In this document: positions 1 through 22,129 of the stretch, in pieces | Numbering within the stretch: position 1 is the first letter of the stretch | How the letters are laid out: each line of letters opens with the position of its first letter | Source: Desulfobulbaceae bacterium | GTDB taxonomy: Bacteria > Desulfobacterota > Desulfobulbia > Desulfobulbales > SURF-16 | Assembly (NCBI GenBank): GCA_027859235.1 | Contig: JAQIBE010000103.1 | Coordinates: 4,321-68,320 of the forward strand | DNA: 64,000 nucleotides | Direction: 5' to 3' | Notes under the pieces: model-generated | Seen by the model: the letters and a program-made list of their open reading frames with translations, nothing else | Databases searched by the model: none | Told to the model about the DNA's origin: nothing | Made by a program: the position numbers and the translations under genes

Positions 1-1283
1 TTGATGATACTTGGATATATGATGATATAGGCACACCAACGTACCAAGATACTGAAAACAGTATTCTTTACCTGCTCAATCAGGATGATGATGAAGATAT
101 GTGTGAAAGTATTGCTAAGTTTATTAGTGATTCATCTGATTTGAACCGAGATAGTTTTAGCCTAATTCACAGGATTCTTCGGCATAAATTTGATACTTTT
201 GAAGAAATACACAATTTACTAGATAAGAAAAATATAAAATCATTACCAGAGAAAATTGAAATATATGAGGATGTTTCTCTTTATGACAATAACAGTGTGA
301 CAGAAAAACTTGGAATCGATGAAGAGAGCCCACTTAATCACAACTCAGAAGATGATCAATCCTCATTACATGAAAATCATTCCTCAAAAGAGGGTGATAC
401 TCAAAGCGACACTAACACTTCGAGTGGAAAGCAAAGGGAGGCTCAAGCAGGTGTAGAAATTCCTCCACCCATAAAGCCTAAAAAATCAAATCCCTCTAAT
501 AAGGAGGATGATGCTAGTTCGCGTGGAGATCATAATCGGCATGGTCACAATGCGAATCAAAGGAGTCAGAAAGGAGGTGGCACTAATAGATCTGGTGAAG
601 CAAAATCATCCGTAAGCAACATCAGTAAGTTGAATTCAAACGCTAATAGTAAAATAGTTAGTTCTAATGACAGAAAGCCCGTTTATGTAGGTAAAGATAA
701 AGAAGTTGACCCTAATGAACAGCGGGAACAAAAAGAGCGTGCTACTGAAATTGGTAATAGAGGTGAGGATTACGTTTTAGAAAGCTCAACAAACTATCTT
801 CTTTATAAATCAAATAAATTTAAAAAGGCTCCAACAAACAACAAAGGGTACGATATTCTAGAAATAGATTCAAACGGAGATATAGTACGTTACATTGAAG
901 TCAAAACTTTGACAGGAGGGTGGGGAGAAGGAGGTGTTGCTGTCACCGAATCTCAATTGGAGTTTGCTCAGGGATATGACAATTGGTGGTTATTTGTTGT
1001 TGAAAATATAAACACACAAAATACCACTGTGCATATATTTGAGAACCCTGTGCAACAAGCTAACCGTTTTATGTTTGATCATAGCTGGAAACAACTTGCT
1101 GAGACTGCCAAAAAGAATCAGTCAGTAGCACCAAAAGAAGGGGATAAATATCGACTATCGGACGGTATATATGAAGTTAGTAGCATTAAACCTAAGGGGA
1201 AGTTCTATAAATTGATACTTAAAGAAACTCAAACAGGTAAAGAAGTTGCAAAAAAGTTTGATCCTTCTTGGGAGAAATGTTGA
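1..1283 (+). CDS. 3' part of a larger protein, open to the left window edge. A long Ser/Asn/Asp-rich low-complexity linker is followed by a DUF3883-like PD-(D/E)xK nuclease-fold domain and a short C-terminal beta-rich tail.
   Basis: Frame 3 is open from nt 3 with no stop, so the ATG at 99 is probably internal. The block EIGNRGEDYVLE...KGYDILEIDSNGDIVRYIEVKT...TESQLEFA...WWLFVV matches the DUF3883 restriction-endonuclease-like pattern (E..D..EVK) as I remember it. Confidence 0.7.
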   Translation, partial: DDTWIYDDIGTPTYQDTENSILYLLNQDDDEDMCESIAKFISDSSDLNRDSFSLIHRILRHKFDTFEEIHNLLDKKNIKSLPEKIEIYEDVSLYDNNSVTEKLGIDEESPLNHNSEDDQSSLHENHSSKEGDTQSDTNTSSGKQREAQAGVEIPPPIKPKKSNPSNKEDDASSRGDHNRHGHNANQRSQKGGGTNRSGEAKSSVSNISKLNSNANSKIVSSNDRKPVYVGKDKEVDPNEQREQKERATEIGNRGEDYVLESSTNYLLYKSNKFKKAPTNNKGYDILEIDSNGDIVRYIEVKTLTGGWGEGGVAVTESQLEFAQGYDNWWLFVVENINTQNTTVHIFENPVQQANRFMFDHSWKQLAETAKKNQSVAPKEGDKYRLSDGIYEVSSIKPKGKFYKLILKETQTGKEVAKKFDPSWEKC

Positions 1284-2977
1284 TGGTTAATATTATTCCA
1301 GTATTGTCTGTGGAGCAGATTGAAGAGATACCTTCAAGAGCTGAGCAGAAGGTATATAAAGCACTGGTTGAACAATTACCTAATGACTGCTTGGTTGTTC
1401 ACTCTCTTGAATTTATAAAACAAACGTCTAGGTTCAAAAGTCATGGAGATAGAGAAGCTGATTTTGTAATTTTTTCACCACGCTTTGGTGTTTTGGTTGT
1501 TGAGGTCAAAGGTGGTGGTATTAGTTATGATAATTCAATTAATCAGTGGTATTCGATTGATCGAAACAAGGATAAACATGAAATAAAAAATCCCGTTCGG
1601 CAAGCTAAAGATGCGAAATACGAAATAAGAAGCCATCTTCAGCAAAGACTAGGCAATAAAAAACTACTGCTTGCTCATGCCGTAATGTTTCCTGATATTG
1701 AAAATGCAGCTCCTTTGGTTAGCCCTAATATGCCAATTAACATAATAGGGGTTAATAGAAACCTTATTGATTTAAAAAAGTGGGTTACAGAGATTTTTGA
1801 TTACTGGGCAGGCGAACAACCCGTTCATGATGCTCTAGGTGAAAATGGGATCAAGGTTGCTGAACAAATCTACGGGAAGCAGGTTTCCATACGCCCTTCT
1901 TTACGCTCTGCAATAGAGAAAGAAGTTCAAAAACAAATTGAGTTAACTAATCAACAAAAAAATATCCTTCGGCAATTAAAAAGAAGAAAAGAGGCTGTGG
2001 TTGAAGGTGGAGCAGGTACGGGTAAAACAGTTCTGGCTCTAGACCAAGCTCAAACACTAGCAGATCAAGGGCTAAATGTTCTATTTCTTTGTTATAACCA
2101 AAGGCTGGGTAATGCACTCAAGATAAAATCACGGCATATTGACAACTTACACTCTATGGGCTTTCATGAGTTTTGTTCTTGGAGAATCAGACAAGTAGAA
2201 AGTAATACAGAACGTAATTTAATAGAAGAATCTAGGAACATCTACCCTGGAGACGATTTATATGATGTATTGATGCCTGATGCTTTGATTAATAGTTACG
2301 AATTAGCTCCTATTCAATACGATGTAATTTTAATTGATGAGGGACAAGATTTTAAACCTGAGTACTGGTTGGCTATTGAAATGTTGCGAGATCAACATGA
2401 AGATACAAAGCTCTATATCTTTCAGGATAGCAATCAGGCGATTTATACCAATAGTAACGATCTTCCAATTGATTGTGAGCCTTTATTTTTGTTTGATAAT
2501 TGTCGTAACACCAAATACATCCATAATTCTGCCTACCAGTATTACAAAGGAACTGAAGTATATGCTCCAGATTTAGAAGGAGAACCTGTTCGGCTTATAG
2601 AAAAATCTTCCCTGGGACTACAAGCAAAAGAAATTGATAATAAGATATCAAGGTTAATCAATACCGAAATTATAGACCCAGAGGATATTGCTATTGTCGT
2701 AATGGGGCAGTTTCATGAGGCGCAACTACTTTTGGAAAATACAAAAAATAGTCATTTGTGGGCTTTTAAAGAGTTCTCTCCAGTTTCTAAGGTATTAGTA
2801 GAAACGGAAAAAAGGTTTAAAGGATTAGAATCAAAAATTATTTTTCTTTGGATAATTGATGAAGAAGCTATAAATGATAAATTACTCTATGTTTCTATAT
2901 CCCGTGCTCGATTTAGATTGTGGGTAATAGGAACCACACCAATTATTCAAAGAACAAATCTAATGAAATTCACATAA
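1277..2977 (+). CDS. NERD-domain nuclease fused to an SF1 (UvrD/AAA_19-like) helicase
   Basis: N-terminal NERD pattern: EQKVYKAL...HGDREADFVIFSPRFGVLVVEVKGG. Walker A is GGAGTGKT and Walker B is VILIDEGQDF. The C-terminal UvrD_C-like motif is LLYVSISRARFRLWVI. The start is ambiguous (TTG 1268, ATG 1277, ATG 1283). ATG 1283 overlaps the upstream TGA as TGATG, with GGAG 8 nt upstream. Confidence 0.8.
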   Translation: MLMVNIIPVLSVEQIEEIPSRAEQKVYKALVEQLPNDCLVVHSLEFIKQTSRFKSHGDREADFVIFSPRFGVLVVEVKGGGISYDNSINQWYSIDRNKDKHEIKNPVRQAKDAKYEIRSHLQQRLGNKKLLLAHAVMFPDIENAAPLVSPNMPINIIGVNRNLIDLKKWVTEIFDYWAGEQPVHDALGENGIKVAEQIYGKQVSIRPSLRSAIEKEVQKQIELTNQQKNILRQLKRRKEAVVEGGAGTGKTVLALDQAQTLADQGLNVLFLCYNQRLGNALKIKSRHIDNLHSMGFHEFCSWRIRQVESNTERNLIEESRNIYPGDDLYDVLMPDALINSYELAPIQYDVILIDEGQDFKPEYWLAIEMLRDQHEDTKLYIFQDSNQAIYTNSNDLPIDCEPLFLFDNCRNTKYIHNSAYQYYKGTEVYAPDLEGEPVRLIEKSSLGLQAKEIDNKISRLINTEIIDPEDIAIVVMGQFHEAQLLLENTKNSHLWAFKEFSPVSKVLVETEKRFKGLESKIIFLWIIDEEAINDKLLYVSISRARFRLWVIGTTPIIQRTNLMKFT

Positions 2978-3528: not shown

Positions 3529-3942
3529 TTAGTAATCATCCAAGTCTGGTCTTGCCTCGTAATAGATAACACTTTCAAAAGTTTCAATAATCACATCTAT
3601 GCTGGGGTAGTCACGAGTATCACCAGAGCCAGACATTGGCTGAATCCATCTATCCATCACCCCCCATGCATCGCTATTATGAAATTCAGATATATATCCT
3701 CTGATCGCCGATATAATGCTAGATGGTGAATCTTCATCGTCTAGATAACAGTATGGAGTCCAACTATCTTTGTTGCCCCATAAAGTACTGGTTATAGATA
3801 CTGCCGAGGGTAGAGAATCGTCATTTTTCCTATCATCTTCCCACTCTTCAAGGAGTGTTTCGAAAACAGTACTGAATTCAGGTAACGGCTTGATAGATTT
3901 CTTTGCTTCAGCGATAGGCTTTTGTGGATCTTGTGATTCCAT
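3529..3942 (-). CDS. Hypothetical small acidic Trp-rich protein (137 aa)
   Basis: ORF with GAGG 7 nt upstream of the ATG. The product is strongly acidic (runs of D/E, ends DLDDY). I recognise no family motif. It lies 162 nt downstream of the Hsp70-like gene on the same strand. Confidence 0.6.
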   Translation of the reverse strand: MESQDPQKPIAEAKKSIKPLPEFSTVFETLLEEWEDDRKNDDSLPSAVSITSTLWGNKDSWTPYCYLDDEDSPSSIISAIRGYISEFHNSDAWGVMDRWIQPMSGSGDTRDYPSIDVIIETFESVIYYEARPDLDDY

Positions 3943-4104
3943 GGCTTGCCTCTATCTAGTTGATGTTCATGGTGTGATCTGAGGGAAGCGCGTAAGAAGG
4001 TATCAATATACTGCCATTGATGATTGCACACGCATAAGAGCACTCAAAATTTATAGTCGACACACTCATTTGATTGGCCACCATCTTTGAATCTGAAAGC
4101 AAAT

Positions 4105-5898
4105 TCAAATTCCTGAAATCGGGTTACGAGCTAAAACAAAACCTCCAGCATAACTACTCATATCTTGAACAATACGTTTTTCATCTATAATATTGGGCAT
4201 GCTTCCGCCAATAGCAACAGCTAGTTGTGGATATACTAAAGCAAGCTCAGGGTCATAATTAAACTCCTCAGGAACCAGAGCCATTTTATCTTTTGGAATA
4301 TTAATTCCGTGGGCAAGAATTACCCCATCTGCAAGCTCTGTCACCATGGGAAGAGTTGCGCCACCTCCTGTTAAAGCAATGGAAATACCATCCTTGCCAT
4401 ATTGCCTAACAACACCTTCTTTCATTGGTTTAAGCACAGCGTCAAACTTTTCTGCCAAATTCTTTTTAAATCGTAAAACCGTTTCATGCTGTAAGAACTC
4501 ATCCCTGTCGACAATGACTCGAGTATCATTAATGAGATTCACAGCACAATCACCATCGCGAAAAAGATCCTCTTTCAATGCTCTTACCTGCATCCTTAAA
4601 TGTTTAACTACATATGGTCGGTCAGGGTCATTATCGCGTATACCTGATTTTTCCATGATCATTTGTTGCAAGGCTGTGTCCAAAACATCTCCAGCTTGAC
4701 GAAGTGACTGATTGCACCCTTCAACAGGAAAGCCATTAAATAAATTCCTTTCCAGATCTTTAACCACAACAAATAAAGCAAGATCAGATGTGCCAGCACC
4801 AACATCAACAACCATAGCCAACCCCCTGAACGGCTCATCTTCTTGGAGTTTCGAACTGGCTACAGCTAATGGTTCTGTAACCCCCTGTGAAACTAAATAA
4901 CTTGGAAGTTCTTCTAGTTTGTCAATTTTGTCCAGAACAGACTTCACATCATAGATGTTTAGTCCGTCTTTCCATTGACCATGAAAAGTATCTGCAACAA
5001 TCTGAGCTTTAATGAGCATCTTTTGAAGTAATTTTTCTCCCCACTCCCGTCTTTCCTGATCCCAAGATGGTAAACCAAAATTACGTACTACATACCTTGA
5101 ACAATCATGAGCTTCCTCAAGCTCAGTACAGGCAAGGTCTGTTAAAAAACCTAAATAAATAATAATAGCATCACCCATTGACAAGGGGACATCCGTAGGA
5201 TTCAAAGAAGCTGACATAGGCTGCTGAAATGGAGTCGATTGCTTGAGACCAAGAATTAATACTTTTTTCAAAGAATCAAAACGCTCTCTGTTATCGAAAG
5301 AATCCGACTGAAGCGAAAGATTGATCGCCTCCTCACCTAGAAAAATATCACCATTATTACTGATCCACAGAGATGATGGGACGGGGTAAATATCCTTGCT
5401 TTCCCCATTTGAAGCCCTATGGCCCAACTTAAGCAACAAATTCTCAACTAATTCACCATCCTCAGCCATAGCAGCAAATGCTTTAGACATTGCCGTACCA
5501 AAATCCAAACACATTGTGATTTCCCTATCTTGGGGAGACTTAAATTCTAATGAAGCAAGATTTAACTTGATTTCAGCTCTTGGTTTTACTTGTGAAACAG
5601 ACTCTGTTTCGATTTTTACTTCTAGCTCAGACTCATCTTTTTCCTCATCACCACCCAGTTCAACTTCAATCTTTGGCTCTTCTTTAGGTTTCGTTTTTTT
5701 ATCAATAGGAGGTGCTGGGGTAATGATTTTTTGGAGATCAGTGGCCTCCGGAGTTGTAAACAACTCTAATGCAACTTGTAATGCCTCAATCTCCATGGCA
5801 GATAAAACACCAGAAAGTGTGCCTTGACCAGTCTCTGAATCTATCACCACACGAGAAAGCAAATTTTTTAACAATAGTTCTGCTATATTCTTATCCAT
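4105..5898 (-). CDS. Hsp70/actin-fold (ASKHA) ATPase: an Hsp70-like nucleotide-binding domain with a unique ~120-aa N-terminal region and no canonical Hsp70 substrate-binding domain
   Basis: Phosphate-1 motif is CLDFGTAMSKA. Phosphate-2 motif is VVDVGAGTSDLALF. Adenosine motif is ALTGGGATLPMV. The N-terminus is a short helical segment followed by a Lys/Glu-rich linker. An AGGGGGG RBS lies in the 14-nt gap after the upstream gene. Confidence 0.85.
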   Translation of the reverse strand: MDKNIAELLLKNLLSRVVIDSETGQGTLSGVLSAMEIEALQVALELFTTPEATDLQKIITPAPPIDKKTKPKEEPKIEVELGGDEEKDESELEVKIETESVSQVKPRAEIKLNLASLEFKSPQDREITMCLDFGTAMSKAFAAMAEDGELVENLLLKLGHRASNGESKDIYPVPSSLWISNNGDIFLGEEAINLSLQSDSFDNRERFDSLKKVLILGLKQSTPFQQPMSASLNPTDVPLSMGDAIIIYLGFLTDLACTELEEAHDCSRYVVRNFGLPSWDQERREWGEKLLQKMLIKAQIVADTFHGQWKDGLNIYDVKSVLDKIDKLEELPSYLVSQGVTEPLAVASSKLQEDEPFRGLAMVVDVGAGTSDLALFVVVKDLERNLFNGFPVEGCNQSLRQAGDVLDTALQQMIMEKSGIRDNDPDRPYVVKHLRMQVRALKEDLFRDGDCAVNLINDTRVIVDRDEFLQHETVLRFKKNLAEKFDAVLKPMKEGVVRQYGKDGISIALTGGGATLPMVTELADGVILAHGINIPKDKMALVPEEFNYDPELALVYPQLAVAIGGSMPNIIDEKRIVQDMSSYAGGFVLARNPISGI

Positions 5899-5912
5899 TG
5901 TCCCCCCTTTGT

Positions 5913-7364
5913 TTACTCTACTTTTTTCACTAAACCCTTTATGATTACAAAAGAAACACCACTATCACGAACTTGCTCCACAACAGGTCGAACAATACAA
6001 ACTTGACGAACCCCATTTCTCTCACCAATTATCTCATGCTCCATGGGGGCATATTCTTCAATATCCCCTGAGGTCCCTCGAACACGAAGATTTTTTCGTT
6101 TTGCCATAACCGCAATAGCATCACAAATTGTCACACCATTTTGCATCAAACGCTGAACACTTTCACCAAGGCGAGGATCGAGCATTTCTATTTCCGGTAA
6201 AATTTGTTGCTTGCCAACACTCTCTAAAGCCTGAAAACGCTGGGCATCAATTAATAATTCAGCCAACTGACAATCATCATTAAGTTGCTGTGATTCACCT
6301 ATGGCAACATCAAGCGGTGCTTCATTTTTCCCTTCCGCTAGCCAATTTTTTACATTATTCGCCACACCTGGCATTTGGGCTAATTTCTTCATTCTCTGGC
6401 GAGCAGTCTTTTTATCACCACAAGCTATAACAAGTTGGCCGGCTAAAGAGTCATCGGTTATGCCTTGTTTGGCAAGTATCAACATGGCTTCAGAAATATC
6501 TTGTACCACCTGTAACAGCGCCTTAGATTGTGGAGCATTTTTAGCCCAGACATTTGTAGGCTGCAGTGACTTAACAACTTTCAACGCAGAATAAGTCGTT
6601 GCTTCTGTGGCTAGGGAGAACCGCAAGCGAACCACTTCATGAATAACACCTGCAACCCCTGCTGTTGTATCTATGAGAGTATCTACTTTTTTAGACACAG
6701 GCACATCTTTAAAAGCAGCCCAACAGAGTGAAGCGAGTTGTTTCCCAGGTTCATCTCCAGGTTCACCTCTTATCTCAGCCATAGCAACTTGTAACCCATC
6801 CATAAGGCGCTTGAGACGTTTTGCTATACTTGTACCAGGATCTTCCGTTTCAGGGATAAAAGAACGAATTACACCCGCTAACTCCATAAGAACTGCAGAT
6901 AGATCTGGCTTCATCATTAACAATGCTTTAAGAAAAGCTACTCGAGACTGCTCTCCAGTCTCTTCATAAACAATAGCATTTGCACAATAATCAACTCCCC
7001 ATTTAGGCTGGACCTGTTCGCAAGCATAGCCCACATAACTGCGGTCGTCAGGTTCTTCCAATAAAAATGGCTCTGGTAATTCTTTGGCTAATGCCACCTG
7101 CAAAGAATCATAAATGGTGGCTCGTAACCGCTTTATGCTTGAAGCAAGACGACCAAGGGTTGCCACAGCGAGGAGACGATCTTTATCCTGGGCAGAGGTG
7201 TCACCAACGGTCTCCAATAAGCCATCAATACCAATCTGAAAACCCTTATCTTTTGAAGCAGCGTGATGTTTTCGGGCCGCAATGAGTTTCCGCAGAGCAT
7301 CATATTTTTCCTGTACCGTGCCCAATGAAAACAAGGTTGTTAATGTTTCCTGTTTATTCTTCAT
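5913..7364 (-). CDS. Hypothetical 483-aa protein, mostly helical by composition, with a short beta-type C-terminal domain. It is the first gene of the Hsp70-like module.
   Basis: Long ORF with a plausible ATG, tightly coupled (14-nt gap) to the Hsp70-like gene. No catalytic motif recognised. The C-terminal ~55 aa resemble the GrpE beta-domain by eye (see findings). Confidence 0.8.
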   Translation of the reverse strand: MKNKQETLTTLFSLGTVQEKYDALRKLIAARKHHAASKDKGFQIGIDGLLETVGDTSAQDKDRLLAVATLGRLASSIKRLRATIYDSLQVALAKELPEPFLLEEPDDRSYVGYACEQVQPKWGVDYCANAIVYEETGEQSRVAFLKALLMMKPDLSAVLMELAGVIRSFIPETEDPGTSIAKRLKRLMDGLQVAMAEIRGEPGDEPGKQLASLCWAAFKDVPVSKKVDTLIDTTAGVAGVIHEVVRLRFSLATEATTYSALKVVKSLQPTNVWAKNAPQSKALLQVVQDISEAMLILAKQGITDDSLAGQLVIACGDKKTARQRMKKLAQMPGVANNVKNWLAEGKNEAPLDVAIGESQQLNDDCQLAELLIDAQRFQALESVGKQQILPEIEMLDPRLGESVQRLMQNGVTICDAIAVMAKRKNLRVRGTSGDIEEYAPMEHEIIGERNGVRQVCIVRPVVEQVRDSGVSFVIIKGLVKKVE

Positions 7365-7524
7365 TGATGTTCAACCATTTATTCAAACAAATTGAGTTAT
7401 TTACCACTCTCGCCAGCCTTGGCGAGACTCTTCGACGATGGCGTGCCAGGATATTTAGGATTTCTAAAGCAATTTCATAATGAGATCTAAAGGGGTGTCA
7501 AAGTCATCCATAAATTTATATCCT

Positions 7525-7559
7525 CAAAGTTGTAATTATACAAACATTGTGAAGATGAA
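7525..7559 (-). promoter_or_regulatory. Candidate promoter region for the 483-aa/Hsp70-like operon
   Basis: On the minus strand there is a TATAAT (7530-7525) and a TTGACA (7559-7554), but with a non-canonical 23-nt spacing. The 10-bp palindrome ATGAATTCAT lies between them. An 8-bp stem hairpin, TCTCGCCA gcct TGGCGAGA, sits in the 5' UTR around 7410-7432. Confidence 0.35.
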
Positions 7560-7654
7560 TTCATGTCAAGAGGCAGAAGTTTTATTAAGTAAAATCTATA
7601 ATAATGATACGGGGTTCCAACCTCAGCGTCTACATTACGGCTCCCCAGCCTGAA

Positions 7655-7900
7655 TCAAATCAAACACCACCCTCGCAAACCCCGCAGCTTCTCCTCAGCC
7701 TCTTCCGGCAGCCCCATCTTCTTGACCTTCTCATACTCGGCCAGCACTGCCTCCTTACTCTCTTCAAGAACCCCTTCCAGACGGCGCAATAGGGTAAAGG
7801 GCAGGATCATCCGGCCATACTGGGACTGTTTAAAATCACCGCGCAATAGGTCGGCAAGAGACCAGATATAGGCGGCGAGGTTGTTGCTTGATTGGGTCAT
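7655..7900 (-). pseudogene. hsdM: N-terminal remnant of a type I restriction-modification methyltransferase (HsdM_N domain only)
   Basis: From the ATG at 7900: [67 protein letters not shown]. This is the conserved HsdM N-terminal pattern. The frame ends after 81 codons, with no methyltransferase catalytic domain anywhere downstream. Confidence 0.7.
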
Positions 7901-7946
7901 GAATCTCTTTTCTTGTATAGGATAAAGGGTAAGGGACAGTGGGCCA

Positions 7947-8948
7947 CTACTCTGCTGGCCAATAGAGCCGGACAAGCGGGATCAGGGCGCGGCCTTCCAG
8001 GTCAAAGTTCTCATAATGAGTGACCACCAGGTTGGCCAGCTCGTCAAGGTCAAGCAGGGTGAGAGGGACATTGGCCCGGTCTGCCTCATACTTGGCATCT
8101 TTGGTAAAGCCGCCTGTGCTGATGTAGAGGGCACGGTCACCTTCTCTGAGGCCACCAAGAAAACTTCTAATATTCTGGGAGCCCATGGCAGATCCTTGTC
8201 GATGTTTGACCTCTGCCTTAATACGGGGTTCTTCCAGGCCTAAGCCATCGGGTGAGGCAAAGACATCCACACCCCGGTCCGGACCTTTAGGTGAAATGCG
8301 GGTACGATACCCCATGCCACGCAGGATGGCGGCGGTCAGCTCCTCCATCTCATCGGCAGAGAGGGCAAGGATCTTGTCCTTGATAAACTCATGGGCCTTG
8401 CCCACCATCTCCTGACGGATCTCGTCCAGAGTGGTCTTTTCATCTTCCAGGCTTTCGTTGCCACTTTCAGGGGATTTCCCACCCTGTAAGGCAGACTGAA
8501 TGTCGGCCCAGACATCTTCGTTAACGGCAAAGAGGGTGAGGGTACTGCCTAAGGAGTTACGAGAGCTGGTTGACAGGTCATCACGTTTGACCCGGCTTTG
8601 CCAATCAACCTCCCTGATATGGGGATAATCTTTGGCAACACCAGGTTTGTATTGGTATTCACTTTTAATGACGCCAACAAGGTATTCACGTTGGCCAGGA
8701 TCGTATGAAATGACGTGGTCGCCGACTTGGACGACAGAACGAAACTTATGAAACATGGCAACAGAGTTGCCGATGGCACCCTTGCGCTCATTGGGGTAGG
8801 TCTGCTTGATGGATTGACGGATTTTCTCAAGTTCGCTGACCTGGCTCATATCCCCCAGCTCTATCCAGCCTACAGCCACATAGCCTTTGGCAAAACTACC
8901 GATAAGTCGTCCACCCTCACCGGCCCGAATCATCCAGACATTTTTCAT
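7947..8948 (-). CDS. mrr: Mrr-family restriction endonuclease (N-terminal DNA-binding-type domain plus C-terminal Mrr_cat PD-(D/E)xK domain)
   Basis: The C-terminal block [60 protein letters not shown] is the classic Mrr catalytic core (D...E-x-K). Confidence 0.8.
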
Positions 8949-10150: not shown

Positions 10151-10972
10151 CTAGAGCTTCTTTTCATACTTAAAAACTTTCTCACTCCTTATGTCACTGT
10201 AAGTGTTTCTAATATAATTATCATTTTGTGGAACTGGAATATCCGAAAATTTAAGTGTGAAAAGGTTATCATCTTGGCGACAGTTTTTCCTACTACTGCC
10301 GAACAAACCTTTTTGACTGTAATAATAAAATTCACCTCCATAAAATGAAATTGACTGATTGTAGCTATATTGATCGTTAGCATGAAAACTTATTTCCATT
10401 TGTCCGATTATTGAGTCTGTTTTAATACCTGTTAGCCTAACGCTAATTTTTTTACTTATATATTCACTTGGAATATGAAACCCTTCTTTCCCTTCATTAC
10501 TCTTAATCTTAAAAACTCTAAACATAATAGTATATTCAATTATAGTCCTTATATGATTTCTTAAAGTATGATCATGTTGAGATAAAAAATTAAATTTACT
10601 ATTATATTTACTGGCTTGAGGGAACAAATGAGCTTTGCTGCAATTAAATGTTGACAGTTTAAAACTTTCAATGACTCTATCAGTTGTGGCATCTAAAAAC
10701 TCATTCCATGCTTTAATCTCTTGATCAGATATTGCATGTTTTAGATCTAGTATTTTTTGTTGCTGTATTCTATTTTCGTTTTCTTTTCTCAGTTCTAACT
10801 TTTTTATTTCATTTTCTTTTTCATTTTTGTTGATCCAACTATTGGAAATAGTCATTGTTTTGAAATTAGCAATTATTTTGATATTTTCATTTTTGATTAC
10901 ATCAAAGTTTGTTGATATGTCTTTGCCGTTAATGCTAATAACGCATTGGAGGGTCAGGTCTTGAAAAGCCAT
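10151..10972 (-). CDS. Hypothetical AT-rich orphan protein (274 aa from the ATG at 10972) with a central Lys/Glu/Asn-rich probable coiled coil
   Basis: Long ORF. The ORF-track N-terminal extension (to 11089) reads through repeat sequence and looks non-coding. MAFQDLTLQ is the first credible start. No family recognised. Confidence 0.6.
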   Translation of the reverse strand: MAFQDLTLQCVISINGKDISTNFDVIKNENIKIIANFKTMTISNSWINKNEKENEIKKLELRKENENRIQQQKILDLKHAISDQEIKAWNEFLDATTDRVIESFKLSTFNCSKAHLFPQASKYNSKFNFLSQHDHTLRNHIRTIIEYTIMFRVFKIKSNEGKEGFHIPSEYISKKISVRLTGIKTDSIIGQMEISFHANDQYSYNQSISFYGGEFYYYSQKGLFGSSRKNCRQDDNLFTLKFSDIPVPQNDNYIRNTYSDIRSEKVFKYEKKL

Positions 10973-11138
10973 ATTCTCAAATGGGGAAGGACCTGGGGTC
11001 AGGCTTCCAAGTTGACAAAGTAAGGAAAGAGACAGGCAAAAGAAAAAGTGGGGGTCAGGTCTTGCCCTTTGCACAACAAATAAATGCACCGGGTAAACCG
11101 GTGATTATCGCGTTATGCCCTAAAAATAAAACTTACGC

Positions 11139-11194: not shown

Positions 11195-11476
11195 ATGCAA
11201 AGATTAAGAATCGATCAAGACATTCGATCCATGTCAGAATTTAGAACTGGAATTGCCTCATTTCTCAAACAAGTTCACGACACCAAAAGACCTCTCATCA
11301 TTACCCAACATGGTAAAAGCGCTGCAGTCTTAGTCGACGTTGGTGAATATGAAGCCATGCAGGAAAAAATTGAATTATTAAGCGATATCCATACATCCAT
11401 GAGCCAAATTGAAAACGGCGAGGGAATTAACCATGCGACAGCGAAGGAAATGATCTTAAAGAGAATAGCCAAATGA
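11195..11476 (+). CDS. Type II antitoxin, Phd/YefM family
   Basis: MSEFRTGIASFLKQVHDTKRPLIITQHGKSAAVLVDVGEYEAMQEKIELL is the typical YefM/Phd N-terminal fold sequence. It overlaps the toxin gene by 4 nt (ATGA). Confidence 0.85.
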   Translation: MQRLRIDQDIRSMSEFRTGIASFLKQVHDTKRPLIITQHGKSAAVLVDVGEYEAMQEKIELLSDIHTSMSQIENGEGINHATAKEMILKRIAK

Positions 11477-11769
11477 AAATAATTTGGTCGCCACTAGCTA
11501 TCGATAGAGCAGCAGAAATAGCTGAATACATTTCCCTCGACAATTCCACTGCAGCCAACAAATGGATTGAAAAAATATTTGAAAAAGTCAAAGCCCTATC
11601 AACGTCACCAGAAGTTGGCAGAAAAGTACCAGAAATTAACCGAAAGGAAATTAGAGAATTAATTTTCGGAAATTACCGCATAATTTATAGGCTGGAGACT
11701 GCTAATATTTACATTCTCACTATCCGTCATGGCAAGCAGATATTACCTGTAGATGAAATAATGGTCTAG
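11473..11769 (+). CDS. Type II toxin, ParE/RelE superfamily
   Basis: The pattern IIWSPLAIDRAAEIAEYI...NYRIIYRLETANIYILTIRHGKQ is characteristic of ParE-like toxins. It is coupled to the upstream antitoxin. Confidence 0.85.
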   Translation: MKIIWSPLAIDRAAEIAEYISLDNSTAANKWIEKIFEKVKALSTSPEVGRKVPEINRKEIRELIFGNYRIIYRLETANIYILTIRHGKQILPVDEIMV

Positions 11770-11770
11770 C

Positions 11771-11948
11771 TTCAACTTTGAAGTGCGACAAAATTTAATA
11801 AAAAACCAGGCCACACCAACCTAAGTGCATGAAATTGCATAACAAATCAATCAACCCAACTTGCGAGCACGCGCGTTCTTTTAAGTCAGCTTCAACAATT
11901 TTAACCGTTTGAGCTTGGTAGCCAACTGGTTGGCAAGCCGGTTATCTC
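11771..11948 (+). repeat. 178-bp composite repeat, forward copy (partner at 9910-10087). It contains an attC-like bulged hairpin at 11902-11944.
   Basis: It starts 2 nt after the parE-like stop. In the hairpin, a continuous right arm GTTGGCAAGCCGGTTA pairs with TAACCG-[TTTGA]-GCTT-[GGTA]-GCCAAC, leaving two extrahelical bulges on one arm. Confidence 0.85.
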
Positions 11949-11977
11949 GGCGTTAGCACACAAAAAACCATAACGCC

Positions 11978-12005
11978 TTGCATTATTACCGAGAAGTGTT
12001 ATCAT
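11978..12005 (+). promoter_or_regulatory. Sigma70-type promoter candidate for higBA
   Basis: TTGCAT (11978-11983), a 16-nt spacer, then TATCAT (12000-12005), just upstream of the ATG at 12012. Confidence 0.35.
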
Positions 12006-12011
12006 CTAATT

Positions 12012-12293
12012 ATGATCAAGTCATTCCGGTGTAAAGAGACTCAAAAGATATTCGGCAGGAAATTCTCAAAAAAACTGCCGACAGAAATTCAAGAAACCGC
12101 CAGAATTAAATTGATCATCTTGGATGCGGCAACGTCAATAAACGACTTGAGGGTTCCGCCAGGCAATAGACTTGAAGAATTGAAAGAAAACAGAAAGGGT
12201 CAACATAGCATCAGAATTAACAACCAATGGCGTATCTGTTTTGAATGGAAAAACGGCAACACATTCAATGTAGAAATTGTTGACTATCACTAG
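12012..12293 (+). CDS. higB: Type II toxin HigB (RelE/ParE superfamily, plasmid-maintenance killer type)
   Basis: MIKSFRCKETQKIF...INDLRVPPGNRLEELKENRKGQHSIRINNQWRICFEW is the canonical HigB sequence pattern. The toxin-first gene order is typical of higBA. Confidence 0.85.
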   Translation: MIKSFRCKETQKIFGRKFSKKLPTEIQETARIKLIILDAATSINDLRVPPGNRLEELKENRKGQHSIRINNQWRICFEWKNGNTFNVEIVDYH

Positions 12294-12312
12294 AACGAAT
12301 GAGGTAAAAAAA

Positions 12313-12615
12313 ATGGAAACAAAATCACTACCTCCCATACATCCTGGCAAGATACTGCTCGAAGAATTCTTAGAGCCAATGGGTATCACACAATATCGCT
12401 TAGCCAAGGATACATCTGTGCCCCCAAGAAGAATAAATGAAATTGTTCATCAAAAACGTGCTATTACGGCAGATACAGCATTACGTTTAGGAGTTTTCTT
12501 CAACATGTCTCCTCACTTCTGGATGAACCTTCAAAGCAGATATGAACTGGAAAAAGCAGAAGATCAGCTTGAAGACAAGTTAATGAACGAAGTCCACCAA
12601 TACAAAACTGCATAA
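12313..12615 (+). CDS. higA: HigA antitoxin (XRE-type HTH)
   Basis: PIHPGKILLEEFLEPMGITQYRLAKDTSVPPRRINEIVHQKRAITADTALRLGVFF is the HigA/VapI HTH pattern. I prefer the ATG at 12313 (GAGG RBS) over the ORF-track start at 12277. Confidence 0.85.
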   Translation: METKSLPPIHPGKILLEEFLEPMGITQYRLAKDTSVPPRRINEIVHQKRAITADTALRLGVFFNMSPHFWMNLQSRYELEKAEDQLEDKLMNEVHQYKTA

Positions 12616-12632
12616 AACCAAATAAAATCAAA

Positions 12633-12700
12633 AGCTTCGTTCAACAATTCGCTCAAGCACGACGCGTGAGCACGCTAGTTTTAACGGCTTCGGCCAACTT
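12633..12700 (+). repeat. Degenerate, truncated third copy of the composite repeat at the island/backbone junction
   Basis: It shares AGCTTC-GTTCAACAATT, TTTTAACGG and GCCAACT with 11886-11925. It lacks the right arm (TGGTTGGCAAGCCGGTTATC) and carries a GC-rich hairpin insert, GCTCAAGCACGACGCGTGAGC. Confidence 0.5.
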
Positions 12701-12751
12701 ATTACAACCCGAACTTACTCAACCCCTGCTAGGCGCGCGTCTGCATGGCCC

Positions 12752-13522
12752 CTACTCAAGATGAATAAAGAGATCACCACGGGGGACCGCATTTTGCTGA
12801 TGCCCCTTTTGTCTGATGCGAAGGATTTTGCCGGAGGATGAGTGGGGCGGAATTTTGACACGAATTGTCTCTCCCTGCAAGCCTGTCATGACCTGAACCC
12901 ATGTGCCGTCAAAGAGCTCCTGCGGACTTAAGCTAATATGATAATGGAGATCGCCATTCGTCTGTTCGGGTTGCGGAGTAGACGAACCCTTCTGCGAACC
13001 GGAGAGCAGTGAGGCTACCCCCCGGGTGATGTTTTTTACCACGGGGTGGCCAACAAGCTGAGCCAGACCTGCTTTCGACGTTATTTTCCGACCTGCCATG
13101 GAACCGAAAATAGCAAGCCCGCCGAGGAGCAGTCCCTTCCCGCCAAACAGCGTCTGCTTAAAAAACTTCGCGTCAGCCCGCACGCCGCCCCGTTGAAAAT
13201 CCTGAAGGATCGTCTGAAAGAGTTGCTTGAAACGCGGGTCATTGAAGAGATCCCGCAAAATATCATCCTGGGAATACTGGAAGCCCCCGTTGGTCTTTGA
13301 CTGGCGAAACCCGGTGGATTTATAGCGGTCATACTCCCGTTTTTTCACCGGGTCGGTCAACACCCCATACGCCTCGGCAAGGTCCTTAAACTTTGCCTCC
13401 GCCGCAGGATTATCGGGATTGAGATCGGGATGATAGGCCATGGCACGTTTGCGGTACTGTTTCTTGATCTCCGCATCCGTTGCCCCTTTCTCCACCCCCA
13501 GGATCTGATAATAATCCTTCAC
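12752..13522 (-). CDS. J-domain protein (DnaJ/CbpA-like) with a Gly-rich hydrophobic middle segment and a short DnaJ-C-like tail
   Basis: The N-terminal sequence DYYQILGVEKGATDAEIKKQYRKRAMAYHPDLNPDNPAAEAKFKDLAEAYGVLTDPVKKREYD is a J domain with an HPD motif. The start overlaps the cobS stop by 4 nt. Confidence 0.85.
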   Translation of the reverse strand: MKDYYQILGVEKGATDAEIKKQYRKRAMAYHPDLNPDNPAAEAKFKDLAEAYGVLTDPVKKREYDRYKSTGFRQSKTNGGFQYSQDDILRDLFNDPRFKQLFQTILQDFQRGGVRADAKFFKQTLFGGKGLLLGGLAIFGSMAGRKITSKAGLAQLVGHPVVKNITRGVASLLSGSQKGSSTPQPEQTNGDLHYHISLSPQELFDGTWVQVMTGLQGETIRVKIPPHSSSGKILRIRQKGHQQNAVPRGDLFIHLE

Positions 13523-14268
13523 GTCAGCATGCCAAGGCAGAGCAGTCCGCCTAAAAGTCCACAGGCCTCACTCCACTCGGTCACCCCGCCAAGGACATCC
13601 CCTGTGACCCCGCCAAGGAGCTTATTGGCGCGCAGACGTAGAAAGAAGGCGGGAAGACAGGAACAGACTATCACCGCAAGACAGGGGAGAACAGCCAGAC
13701 AGAGGGGTGCCAGAAATAACGAGGATAAGAGCAGTTGCGGGAAGGTCACCTGACCAATGATAAAATGGCCCGTACCGGTATCACGGGGATAGGTGGCACG
13801 GGCGGCGGTGACGATCATCCAGAACCGCGCGGAGATCGGTGCCATAAGCAGAATCGGCAGACAGGAGAGCCCATAGTCAAAGAGATGAAAGAGCGTTGCT
13901 GTTTTCAGGAGGAGCAGAACAACCAGCGCCACCACGCCAAAGGCCCCGGTGGAGGAATCCTTCATGATTTCCAACCGCCGTCCAGGCTCTAGACTGCCGC
14001 CAAACCCATCAGCCAGATCAGCAACACCGTCAAGATGCAGACCACGGGTGAGCCAGGCCAGAAGACCTGTAACCGCAACCGCCAGCACAAGAGGCGGCGC
14101 ATGGAGCGTGAGAGCCGCCCAGGAAAAACCCGTAATAATGAGCCCAAGAACGAGGCCGGCAAAGGGAAAAAAGGTGACGGCACGACGCAGGTCAGCTGAG
14201 TCCACCGCACCAGGGTTAACCGGCAGGCAGGTCAAAAAAGACAACGCTAGTCCAATGGATTTAAACAC
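13519..14268 (-). CDS. cobS: Adenosylcobinamide-GDP ribazoletransferase (cobalamin synthase)
   Basis: Polytopic membrane protein. The N-terminus FLTCLPV and the block GLHLDGVADLADG are typical of CobS. It is adjacent to cobT. Confidence 0.85.
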   Translation of the reverse strand: MFKSIGLALSFLTCLPVNPGAVDSADLRRAVTFFPFAGLVLGLIITGFSWAALTLHAPPLVLAVAVTGLLAWLTRGLHLDGVADLADGFGGSLEPGRRLEIMKDSSTGAFGVVALVVLLLLKTATLFHLFDYGLSCLPILLMAPISARFWMIVTAARATYPRDTGTGHFIIGQVTFPQLLLSSLFLAPLCLAVLPCLAVIVCSCLPAFFLRLRANKLLGGVTGDVLGGVTEWSEACGLLGGLLCLGMLT

Positions 14269-14297
14269 GTCTCACCCCTGACACAGGACTCAAGACC

Positions 14298-15359
14298 TCA
14301 GACATGATTCACCCCGGCCTCACCAAAGGTGGCCATTTGCGTCATAATTTTCACCCCGGCCTCGATAATAGACATGGCCAGGGCTGCCCCCGTACCTTCG
14401 CCAAGACGAAGTCCTAAATGGAGGAGAGGTTCAGCCCCGATCTCTGCAAAAAAGAGCCGGTGGCCCTGTTCAGCGGACATATGACTGAAAAAACAATAGT
14501 CAACCACATGCGGGTTCAGCCGCATGGCACATAACGCCCCGGCGCTGGAGATGAAACCATCCACCACCACCGGAATTCGGGCCCGGGCCGCCTCGAGAAT
14601 CAGGCCGCATATCCCGGCAATCTCAAGACCTCCCAAGGCGGCAAGTGTTGCCACGGGTGAGGTACAGCGAGCCTGATTCACCGCCAGGGCATCGGCAATG
14701 ACCTGCACCTTATGGGCCAGAGCCTCATCACTGATCCCGGTACCCCGTCCCGTTACCTCCAGGGGTTCAAGGTCCAGGAACTGGGCAAATAACGCGGCCG
14801 ACGGTGTGGTGTTGCCGATCCCCATATCACCCGTCCCAAGAAGCCCTGCACCGTCGTCAATGGCCGCGCGGGCTGCTCGGATCCCGGCATGAATAGAGGC
14901 CAGTGCCTCCTCTTCTGACATGGCAGGCCCAATGCGAATATTATCCGTACCCGCCTTGACCTTGGACTGAATGAGCCCCTCGCCAACAATCGGCACCGCG
15001 ACTCCCACATCCACCACCCGGACCTCGGCGCCGACATGGTTGGCCAGGACATTCACCCCGGCCCCGCCTGCGAGAAAATTGGCCACCATCTGCGGGGTGA
15101 CCTCGGCCGGAACAGCGCTCACCCCTTCGGCAACAACACCATGGTCACCGGCAAAGGTGATGATTATTTTTTTGGAGACATCAGGCGTTATCGTCCGGCG
15201 AATACCCGCCACCCGCCATGCACACTCCTCAAGCCTGCCGAGGGCACCAAGGGGTTTTGTCAGATTATCCAGCCGCGTCCGGGCCTTATCCTGAAAGACC
15301 TGGTCAACGGGGCTGATTGCTTTGAGATGGGCAGTAAGATCGTTATAAGTAAATGGCAT
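14298..15359 (-). CDS. cobT: Nicotinate-nucleotide--dimethylbenzimidazole phosphoribosyltransferase
   Basis: The blocks LTKPLGALGRLE, FAGDHGV, GDMGIGNTT and GEGTGAA are conserved CobT motifs. Confidence 0.9.
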   Translation of the reverse strand: MPFTYNDLTAHLKAISPVDQVFQDKARTRLDNLTKPLGALGRLEECAWRVAGIRRTITPDVSKKIIITFAGDHGVVAEGVSAVPAEVTPQMVANFLAGGAGVNVLANHVGAEVRVVDVGVAVPIVGEGLIQSKVKAGTDNIRIGPAMSEEEALASIHAGIRAARAAIDDGAGLLGTGDMGIGNTTPSAALFAQFLDLEPLEVTGRGTGISDEALAHKVQVIADALAVNQARCTSPVATLAALGGLEIAGICGLILEAARARIPVVVDGFISSAGALCAMRLNPHVVDYCFFSHMSAEQGHRLFFAEIGAEPLLHLGLRLGEGTGAALAMSIIEAGVKIMTQMATFGEAGVNHV

Positions 15360-20041: not shown

Positions 20042-22129
20042 TTAATCATCAGCAAGAACAGCCTTACGGCTCAGGCGAATCTTACCACGCTGATCAACGG
20101 CCAAGACCTTCACTTCAATCTCTTCACCAACCTTAAGAATGTCCGTCACCTTCTCAACCCGACCCTCTGCAAGCTCAGAAATATGCACAAGTCCATCGGT
20201 ACCGGGAAGAATCTCAACAAAGGCACCAAAATCAACAATGGTCTTAACCACGCCTTTGTAAATCCGGCCAACTTCAGCCTCAGAAGTGACTTCGTCGATG
20301 CGGGCCTTAGCAGCCGCAGCAACAATACCGTCAGGAGCAAAGAGCTTCACGACACCCTCGTCATCGACATCAATCTTAACGTCAAATTCAGCGGAGATAC
20401 CGCGAATCATCTTACCGCCAGGGCCAATGAGGTCACGGATCTTGTCCGGGTTGATCTGAATAGACATGATCTTTGGCGCGTGATCAGGCAAATCAGCCTT
20501 AGATTGGGAAATGGTTTTCGCCATCTCGCCAAGGATATGATCAATACCAGCTCTGGCCTGGCTCAGGGCATCCTTCATGATCTCACGGCTCACGCCTTCA
20601 ATCTTGATATCCATCTGCAGGGCAGAGATACCTTCAGCAGTACCACAGACCTTAAAGTCCATATCGCCAAGATGATCTTCATCACCAAGGATATCGGTGA
20701 GGATAACAATGTTATCCCCTTCCTTGATCAGACCCATGGCAACGCCGGAGACAGGTGCCTTCAAAGGTACACCGGCATCCATCATGGACATGGAACCACC
20801 ACAGACCGAGGCCATGGAGGAGGAACCATTTGATTCCAGAATATCGGAAACGATACGGATGGTGTAGGGGAACTCCTCTTCATTTGGCAGAACGGCCTGG
20901 AGGGCACGAGAGGCCAGGGCACCATGACCAATATCCCGACGACTCGGTCCACGCATGAAACGAGCTTCACCAACACAAAATGGCGGAAAGTTATAATGGA
21001 GCATGAACTTACGAAAGCCCATGCCTTGCAGGGTTTCAATCCGCTGCTCATCAGATCCGCTGCCAAGGGTAGTGGTGACCATGGATTGAGTTTCACCACG
21101 GGTGAACAGGGCAGAGCCATGCACGCGGGGCAGAACAGAAATCTCGGTATCAATGTTACGGACTTCATCAAACTTACGGCCGCCAATACGGAGACCATCT
21201 TCAACAATGGCAGCACGCATCATGTCTTTCTTCATGCCGTAGAGAAATTCCGAAACATCCTTGCGATTCACATCGGCATCTGCTTCAACCATTTTGGCGA
21301 CAACATCCGCCTTCAATGCAGAAAAGGCATTACCACGCTCCATCTTATCCGCAGTATTGATGACCGTTATCATCTCATCTTTGGCGAGAGCAATGACCTT
21401 GGCCTTCAGGGTTTCATCAACCACAGGAGGCTCAACAAGCATCTTCGGTTTGCCAAGTTCAGCAATCAACTCTTCCTGAACCGCAATAATGTTCTGAATG
21501 GCCTCATGACCAAAATAGATCGCATCAAGAACCACATCTTCAGCAACCAGATCAGCGCCACCTTCAACCATAACCACGGCGGCCTTGGTGCCGGCGACAA
21601 TAATATCGAGGGAGGAATTGGCCTGCTCTGAAGTCTTTGGATTAATAACATAGGCGCCATCAATCATACCAACACGAACACCGGCGATCGGGCCGTTGAA
21701 TGGGATATGAGAAAGGCACGTTGCCGCAGAGGCACCAATGAGGGCCAGCAGATCTGATTCATTTTCTTTATCAGCAGAAAGTACGGTGGCAATGATTTGT
21801 GTCTCACACCCATACCCATCGGCAAAGAGTGGACGCATGGGGCGGTCGATGAGCCGACAGGTCAATGTTTCTTTTTCAGTCGGACGACCAATCTCACGGC
21901 GGAAGAAGCTTCCAGGTATTTTACCAACCGCGTAAAAACGTTCTTGATACTCAACCGTAAGCGGCAGGAAATCAATATCAGCACGAGCTTCCTTGGCACC
22001 AACCACAGTAACCAGCACAACTGTCTCACCATAGGTTACAACGACGGAACCGGAGGCCTGCTTCGCCATCTTACCGGATTCAATAGTCAGCGTGCGACCA
22101 CCAACTTCAACTTCTACTTTTTTATACAT
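20042..22129 (-). CDS. pnp: Polyribonucleotide nucleotidyltransferase (PNPase)
   Basis: Two RNase PH-like domains plus KH and S1 ([33 protein letters not shown]). I prefer the ATG at 22129 (MYKKVEVE), which has a GAGGAA RBS. Confidence 0.95.

Follow-up and report, generated by a model that had tools for sequence, protein, structure and literature searches.

The window analyzed here is a stretch of 64,000 nucleotides (nt) from contig JAQIBE010000103.1 of a Desulfobulbaceae bacterium (assembly GCA_027859235.1, positions 4,321 to 68,320 of the forward strand), and near its start, within an island of defense-type genes, it carries three open reading frames (ORFs) on the minus strand, which we call A, B, and C. 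The ORF list and the sequence bear out the coordinates, sizes, and spacings given in a preliminary description that had been made from the letters alone: A encodes 483 aa and B 597 aa (Table 1), and C (137 aa, 3529-3942) follows B after 162 nt. The junction between A and B reads TAA-acaaaggggggaca-ATG, 14 nt that include a G-rich ribosome-binding site, and in other loci (L025 and L028; such labels denote contigs or loci carrying relatives of the pair) an overlap of 4-11 nt is found in place of a gap. A and B form a genuine two-gene, translationally coupled operon. Judged by its sequence, the pair is a new Desulfobulbaceae member of a catalogued candidate defense cassette, PDC-M61, and hence not undescribed. 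What is added here is a reading of B as an Hsp70-type nucleotide-binding domain (NBD) and of its partner A as possibly GrpE-like in its tail, a minimal form of the pair in L016, and its recurrent positions within Hma, within BREX, and after DruE.

Table 1. Features around the A-B pair in the window, followed by the genomic settings in which relatives of the pair are found
Feature	Position or locus	Strand	Basis or remarks
Gene A	5913..7364	-	ORF, 483 aa; PDC-M61A partner protein
A alpha-solenoid, residues 1-345	6330..7364	-	ARM/HEAT-like repeats, all-helical in AlphaFold2
A tail, residues 357-483	5916..6296	-	Helical hairpin and small beta domain; putative GrpE-like module
A-B junction	5899..5912	-	14 nt, G-rich ribosome-binding site
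Gene B	4105..5898	-	ORF, 597 aa; PDC-M61B Hsp70-type ATPase
B small N-terminal domain, residues 1-48	5755..5898	-	Helix, beta-hairpin, helix; AlphaFold2 pLDDT 79-88
B Lys/Glu-rich linker, residues 50-103	5590..5751	-	Disordered, pLDDT <50
B Hsp70-type NBD, residues ~105-582	4153..5586	-	Foldseek, hhalign, invariant motifs
Intergenic region 5′ of A	7365..7654	-	290 nt, AT-rich
hsdM remnant, N-terminal domain only	7655..7975	-	Pfam HsdM_N, E 1e-13, profile positions 1-56/135
Mrr nuclease, intact	7947..8948	-	Pfam; 333 aa; 29-nt overlap with hsdM stub
SACS/NOV_C protein, C-terminal 394 aa	99..1283	+	Gene cut by window edge
NERD+UvrD helicase	1268..2977	+	PADLOC RTasNERD-Hel, E 2e-68; 16-nt overlap with the 99-1283 ORF
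Two type II toxin-antitoxin pairs, Phd/YefM-ParE and HigB-HTH	11195..12615	+	Close the island
Pair embedded in Hma	L004, L005, L007		HmaB / A B / HmaC
Pair in Hma-like layout	L006		By gene size and order
Pair in Hma-like setting	L029/L030		DUF1156 / A B / DUF499
Pair embedded in BREX	L046		BrxC ... PglX / A B / ... PglZ BrxL
Pair directly 3′ of DruE	L012, L008		Same strand
Pair beside other defense genes	L017, L004, L002, L001		L017: HKD-SNF2, HEC-07-like; L004: HEC-05; L002: ZorD/DpdE-like, UvrD-like; L001: methyltransferase
Pair in island or mobile element	L025		TIR, DUF488, HNH, UvrD, SNF2
Pair in island or mobile element	L044		HEPN-SNF2, SACS, UvrD
Pair in island or mobile element	L045		Integrase, D5 primase, STAND
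Pair alone amid housekeeping or metabolic genes	L026, L028, L047		L028: H+-PPase / A B / BamE

A conserved pair catalogued as PDC-M61

Both proteins match models that are already in PADLOC-DB v2. B is recovered by PDC-M61B with an E-value of 4.7e-142, its residues 1-575 aligning to positions 1-565 of the 588 in the profile, and A is matched by four PDC-M61A models, the best of which (E 9.1e-65) aligns residues 18-479 to profile positions 25-486 out of 487. The catalogued cassette is defined by adjacency, with A before B, and this is the arrangement found here, on one strand and with a gap of 14 nt. The pair therefore agrees with PDC-M61 in full-length matches to both models, in gene order and orientation, and in the embedding of its relatives in BREX, restriction-modification (RM), or Hma loci, and no structural difference sets it apart; it belongs to PDC-M61 almost certainly. 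The preliminary description had presented the module as an undescribed system, a claim that falls with the PADLOC run, which identifies the two genes as PDC-M61A/B. Because the module is already flagged in this way, the pair is not a new discovery, and its value lies in a domain-level hypothesis and in the mutants that this hypothesis suggests.

PDC-M61 itself is one of 145 candidates predicted by guilt-by-embedding (Payne, Hughes, Fineran, Jackson, bioRxiv 10.1101/2024.01.29.577857), and supplement file 8 of that preprint gives it as a cassette of two genes, CAS_00187 (FAM_02378>>FAM_01640), with 46 as the number entered for it. Hsp70, DnaK, actin, and chaperones go unmentioned in the main text of the same work. 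A protein identical to B is on record as [quoted passage not shown].

Searches with a hidden Markov model (HMM) of the A tail find an A-type gene directly upstream of B in 22/22 distinct close loci. The linkage reaches further, to distant B-like genes of ~25% identity, three of four of which sit beside an A-type partner. An A tail lies upstream of the B-like gene in L018, and a 485-aa A-like gene is found on the opposite strand in L013. The most reduced arrangement is that of L016 (9414-11320, plus strand), from an alphaproteobacterial metagenome-assembled genome, where a 189-aa partner made up of a coiled coil and a beta domain overlaps a 446-aa ATPase that is a bare NBD. The fourth case is L014, in which the same HMM detects no partner beside the distant B-like gene. 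Since three of the distant B-like genes keep an A-type partner and L016 is reduced to just these two parts, the NBD and the GrpE-like module together appear to make up the conserved core of the system, and the solenoid of A and the small N-terminal domain of B look like additions.

An Hsp70-type domain in B and a possibly GrpE-like tail in A

Invariance in B was read from an alignment of 42 homologues, which are 36-69% identical to the window protein. The three ASKHA motifs that had been picked out by eye are all present, as CLDFGTAMSK (130-139), VVDVGAGTSD (363-372), and LTGGGATLPM (509-518), and they hold through the whole alignment: C130, D132-A136, S138, and K139 are invariant in the phosphate-1 motif (D132, the aspartate singled out earlier, lies within CLDFGT), D365, G367-T370, and D372 in the phosphate-2 motif, and G511 and G512 in the adenosine motif. 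Elsewhere in the protein D208, S209, and K211 of an FDSLK motif and E342 of a TEPLA motif are invariant as well. The AlphaFold2 (AF2) model of B, with a predicted local distance difference test (pLDDT) score of 84.8, was compared with known structures by Foldseek and matches the NBDs of Ssz1, DnaK, BiP, and Hsp70-x at E ~5e-16 and a target-normalized template modeling (TM) score of ~0.7, Ssz1 being the top structural match. By E-value, the best 50 matches in the PDB are all Hsp70 NBDs, and actin, ParM, and MreB are not among them. Profile comparison points the same way: hhalign aligns the B family to Escherichia coli DnaK with a probability of 96.2%, pairing TEPLA with NEPTA, VDVGAGTSD with YDLGGGTFD, and TGGGATLPMV with VGGQTRMPMV. 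The NEPTA segment of DnaK we take to be the one that holds the catalytic glutamate E171, and FDSLK we liken to the FDAKR segment of Hsp70 that holds the catalytic lysine, K211 having been placed by inspection of the motif and not by a tool's alignment. Because the Hsp70 ATPase motifs align with those of DnaK and stay invariant, B looks, from sequence and model, like a hydrolysis-competent Hsp70 NBD.

General domain libraries do not recover this relationship. Pfam HSP70 is not matched by B, and the NCBIfam HscA model gives 19 bits, as against a cut-off of 708. The substrate-binding domain of Hsp70, a beta sandwich with a helical lid, is missing from B, as the preliminary description had it: the chain stops ~30 residues past the NBD, and in the AF2 model the remainder is a disordered tail. 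The N-terminal region with its Lys/Glu-rich linker was likewise seen correctly, and it resolves into two parts. One is a small domain in which G30 and E36 are invariant and L13, R16, and A39 are nearly so; it is missing in the minimal relatives L014 and L016. The other is the linker, in which K+E make up 37% of the residues and whose length is highly variable across the alignment. In relatives of B of 909-962 aa (P0343, P0403, and P0408; also L012 8741-11485) both parts are replaced by helical or Pro-rich extensions of 400-450 residues, in which no domain family is matched, and these extensions, being without a recognizable domain, therefore give no clue to an effector.

Protein A matches no Pfam or NCBIfam family, and neither library gives anything useful for C. 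A was said to be helical, and so it is over the solenoid and the hairpin, but its AF2 model (pLDDT 89.7) ends in a small beta domain. Foldseek with the whole protein gives weak matches to ARM/HEAT-repeat proteins (best E 2.6e-3; TM 0.48 to a designed armadillo protein), and a whole-protein search of this kind is uninformative about the small C-terminal module. Arg, Trp, and Tyr residues are conserved in the solenoid of A, among them R63, R72, R108, W122, R141, R186, R248, Y258, W273, and W341. After the solenoid, the model shows two helices (357-395 and 397-423) followed by seven short strands (426-481). Paired long helices and then a compact beta domain are the layout of GrpE, a correspondence that is one of secondary-structure order only, and the motif RG-PGD--EY-P-EHE with the short strands around it resembles the C-terminal part of GrpE.

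How far this resemblance amounts to descent was approached by profile comparison. For GrpE we used an alignment of 14 diverse sequences from annotated grpE genes (plasmid and chromid records), together with PDB alignments. Against the 14-sequence alignment, hhalign returns the A tail with a probability of 43%, an E-value of 2.5e-4, and a score of 29.7, colinear over 115 columns from the helices through the beta domain and with EYAPMEHE placed on FDPxxHQA. The reversed alignment scores 11.3. Permuting the columns 150 times gives a mean of 11.0 and a maximum of 17.3 (0/150 reach the observed score), and 150 permutations in blocks of six columns give a mean of 16.1 and a maximum of 30.9, with 1/150 reaching it. 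The similarity clearly exceeds composition. Other searches are negative or weak, however: Pfam GrpE (PF01025) is matched by 0/22 A tails even at E <= 10, an HMMER search of the PDB with the A-tail profile has GrpE (8gb3) as one of only 13 matches, aligned on its C-terminal part but at E 1.3, and hhalign with E. coli GrpE alone gives a probability of 0.85%. Homology between the A tail and GrpE, at 43% below the accepted thresholds, is thus suggestive and not proven by these alignments, and we give an exchange-factor role of the GrpE kind for this tail an even chance.

Seen beside the DnaK-GrpE(-DnaJ) machine, B has the fold of an Hsp70 NBD along with the corresponding ATPase motifs, and the A tail shares the GrpE layout of a hairpin and a ~55-residue beta domain. 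There are also differences. DnaK has a substrate-binding domain, a lid, and a J-protein and is universal, whereas B lacks the first two and the pair is a rare accessory cassette; no J-domain partner is seen in the surveyed loci; and in A the exchange-factor-like module is fused to a solenoid of 345 residues. Ssz1, the closest structural match of B, is an atypical Hsp70 that works as part of a stable heterodimer, its partner being largely helical. The eukaryotic ribosome-associated complex of Ssz1 and Zuotin can serve as an analogy only, in view of the other kingdom, the other partners, and a sequence identity of ~15%.

Genomic contexts and possible function

Relatives of the pair are rare and patchy (a cut-off of E <= 1e-30 yields 433 representatives out of 1.84 billion), and they favor defense loci. 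The pair is embedded in Hma or an Hma-like locus in five cases and in BREX in one, and it stands directly after DruE in two (Table 1); BrxC, PglX, and IetS are among the neighbors in the remaining loci. Because the family is small and patchy and has this affinity for defense loci, the pair is very probably a mobile, defense-associated accessory cassette and not a housekeeping gene. The condition under which the preliminary description would have been refuted, single-copy housekeeping homologues in conserved neighborhoods, does not hold: the relatives are patchy accessory genes in variable and often defense-rich surroundings.

Several of these loci have features of their own. L012 (157-11485, plus strand) has a full-length DruE helicase (DruE1 model, E 0), and a DruK-like PD-(D/E)XK nuclease is placed between it and the pair, and in L008 (2094-11779, plus strand) the pair is preceded by a full-length DruE-like helicase with a weak match to the ZorD model in its C-terminal part. 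The arrangement of DruE and the pair could be plain adjacency, or else a Druantia variant with A and B as variable subunits; the Druantia preprint has no mention of A/B-like subunits. A HEC-05 (BrxU/GmrSD-like) gene at 6710-8446 (plus strand) shares the Hma gap of L004 with the pair, and in L017 the pair is followed by a 949-aa protein (11759-14608, plus strand) whose C-terminal half matches HEC-07. L025 carries, at 20399-21743 on the minus strand and in one island with a close homologue of the pair, a separate 809-aa protein that has an HSP70 domain, shows TPR marks that are faint, and adjoins a 412-aa UvrD-like helicase; its gene may represent another type of Hsp70-based defense.

From the domains and the contexts together a mechanism can be sketched. 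A and B would form a stable complex, in which the GrpE-like tail of A would clamp the NBD of B and set its nucleotide state. The solenoid of A, perhaps with the N-terminal domain of B, would recognize a target in trans and so replace the missing substrate-binding domain, and ATP-driven cycling would bind, hold, or remodel a component of a phage or mobile element, with no enzymatic effector involved. The cassette often lodges within other defense operons, and here it lies beside a type I RM remnant. Overall we lean, if only slightly, to a self-contained machine of an Hsp70 NBD and an exchange factor that acts as an autonomous mobile defense cassette, and a function of the pair against phages or mobile genetic elements, taken by itself, is on balance somewhat probable. 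The more specific proposition that PDC-M61 does act against phages and does so by a new type of mechanism, in which, with neither a substrate-binding domain nor an enzymatic effector, the solenoid recognizes a phage protein or nucleic acid, a chaperone-style ATP cycle itself blocks infection through holding or remodeling of the target, and the L016 pair represents the ancestral core, is a tentative one, and we regard it as possible at most.

A number of facts weigh against the autonomous cassette just described. In A and B, including the variants with long N termini, no effector domain was detected, whether nuclease, NADase, membrane, or other. The flanks of the pair are purely metabolic or housekeeping in 3 of ~22 loci. 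PDC-M61 was outside the nine candidates tested by Payne et al. (10.1101/2024.01.29.577857), and no paper testing its anti-phage activity was found in the literature searched; in the one further paper that names it, all that is reported is that it correlates negatively with the number of prophages in Pseudomonas aeruginosa isolates. Other PDCs have failed when tested, namely PDC-M63 and PDC-S04, and 4/8 in another study, and neither of these two studies included PDC-M61.

The main rival has the pair as an accessory chaperone or regulator that aids the assembly, the state switching, or the infection sensing of Hma, BREX, Druantia, and type I RM complexes. The frequent position of the pair within or beside precisely such systems, to which its place after HKD-SNF2 in L017 and beside the hsdM stub here may be added, is what this idea would lead one to expect, and an Hsp70-like ATPase with an exchange factor and no effector domain found is a plausible remodeling device. 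The host systems, however, are mutually unrelated, which is the signature of embedding and not of a dedicated partner (Payne et al., 10.1101/2024.01.29.577857). Moreover, in three loci the pair stands by itself amid housekeeping genes, and in the window A and B are intact next to an RM system of which decay has left a stub. We consider the accessory role unlikely.

A role outside defense appears somewhat less likely again. The pair would be cargo of mobile elements, of use to the element itself or in responding to stress, as in specialized protein quality control or in maintenance. The loci without defense neighbors (L026, L028, and L047) and L045, where the pair adjoins an integrase and a D5 primase, fit this; guilt-by-embedding is a means of prediction, and several PDCs have been negative in tests. 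It is harder to reconcile with repeated placement within operons of five types of defense system, with a B that lacks the substrate-binding domain needed for classical chaperoning, or with the absence of a J-domain partner from the 25 Pfam families that occur most often in the scanned neighbors.

Two further ideas are very improbable. That B is an actin-like filament former of the ParM/MreB/FtsA type, with A as adaptor in a DNA-segregation or cytoskeletal module, draws on NCBIfam marks near phosphate-2 that are far under the cut-offs (FtsA E 4e-4, MreB E 0.05) and on faint MreB_Mbl Pfam marks on some homologues, and it runs counter to the structural and profile matches of B, which go to Hsp70 and DnaK, to the likeness by inspection of the invariant D208 and K211 to their counterparts in FDAKR, and to loci that are chromosomal defense operons and not plasmid partition sites. 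The preliminary description had counted C as a third protein of the system, and a three-gene system with C as, for example, inhibitor or antitoxin would suit an ORF that follows on the same strand and is very acidic (isoelectric point 4.07; D+E 29 versus K+R 11), but this reading is largely refuted: tblastn matches to C are found only in three contigs with identical genes (L022-L024) and in no other related locus, the genes 3′ of B in other loci are unrelated to it, and the PADLOC candidate has two genes. C is not part of the system because it is confined to contigs with identical genes, and it could be an orphan gene, if it is a gene at all.

The literature searched for Hsp70-like defense yielded only CnuD of CoCoNuT and a set of GTPase-centric systems, neither of which has the architecture of the pair. 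CnuD and CnuCD of type III CoCoNuT combine an Hsp70-like NBD and substrate-binding domain with HEAT-like repeats (Bell et al., eLife 2024, PMC11090510). [quoted passage not shown] By description, however, CnuD keeps its substrate-binding domain, carries ATPase motifs that are in part degenerate, and is linked with a McrB-like NxD GTPase, McrC-like genes, and HEPN RNases, whereas B lacks that domain, has its motifs intact, and has the repeats in a separate protein. McrB-like and McrC-like families (CnuB and CnuC) were not seen among the neighbors in the window, in 9 Pfam-annotated loci, or in the top 25 Pfam families of 70 neighbors, and a HEPN partner is not conserved with the pair. GAP1-N2 GTPase-centric conflict systems use HSP70 and GrpE, some of them with a second HSP70 that has no peptide-binding domain (Kaur et al., eLife 2020, PMC7159879). 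These are built around a GTPase, include proteins of the FNIII, DnaJ, or TPR kind, and are found chiefly in actinobacteria and firmicutes; the pair has no GTPase, and its hosts are mostly Pseudomonadota and Desulfobulbaceae. Were PDC-M61 to be validated, the Hsp70 ATPase cycle would enter bacterial immunity as a two-protein core with its own exchange factor and no recognizable killing domain, in contrast to the known systems, among which effectors of the nuclease, NADase, and membrane types prevail, and it would offer a tractable bacterial model for atypical Hsp70s that lack a substrate domain, such as eukaryotic Ssz1.

The surrounding island

Upstream of A, the AT-rich intergenic region of 290 nt probably holds a putative promoter of A's own. 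The promoter and terminator scans are both at chance level, and since the promoter scan does no better than chance, the promoter is not demonstrated. Next comes the truncated hsdM stub, which with the intact mrr beyond it lies where it was first reported. The stub ORF of 106 aa matches PADLOC MTase_I over positions 3-73 of 661, and by its HsdM_N domain it marks a decayed type I RM system beside the cassette. The pair had been placed inside an RM locus, which is right insofar as a type I remnant adjoins it; what is left is a HsdM stub of 81-106 aa, HsdS and HsdR families are absent from the scanned proteins and the called genes around the pair, and the locus does not qualify as a complete type I RM system.

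The Mrr nuclease, which has an N-terminal DUF8426 domain, is itself a full-length match to a PADLOC candidate, PDC-S02 (E 2.5e-91). A representative of PDC-S02 was tested in a cold-seep study, in which four candidates gave protection against T4, T5, or T7, PDC-S02 not being one of them (10.1101/2024.09.26.614923). Composition sets the cassette apart from mrr, in agreement with the impression gained by eye: GC is 0.38-0.44 over A and B but 0.50-0.54 in mrr, and the core genes past 12.7 kb reach 0.53-0.62.

The remaining neighbors comprise the NERD-UvrD helicase, a Tiamat-like protein, and two toxin-antitoxin pairs, helicases and toxin-antitoxin cassettes having been noted in the preliminary description. 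The SACS/NOV_C protein that is cut by the window edge has 1814 aa in contig L022 and matches PADLOC TmtA at E 3e-78; TmtA we take to be Tiamat. In L044, too, the pair is flanked by a SACS protein together with a UvrD-like helicase, so that this neighbor is a recurrent one. Between mrr and the toxin-antitoxin genes, a 312-aa ORF (10151-11089, minus strand) with zero matches in Pfam, NCBIfam, and PADLOC lies where the island is richest in AT (GC 0.29-0.32). No tRNA was found at the island edge. GC rises to at least 0.53 at ~12.7 kb, and from 12752 core genes begin, a DnaJ-domain protein first and then CobS and a DBI_PRT phosphoribosyltransferase. A J-domain gene thus lies ~5 kb from the Hsp70-like gene B, but since it sits in DNA of core GC and DnaJ is absent from the Pfam families found most often in the neighbors elsewhere, its closeness to B is probably a coincidence.

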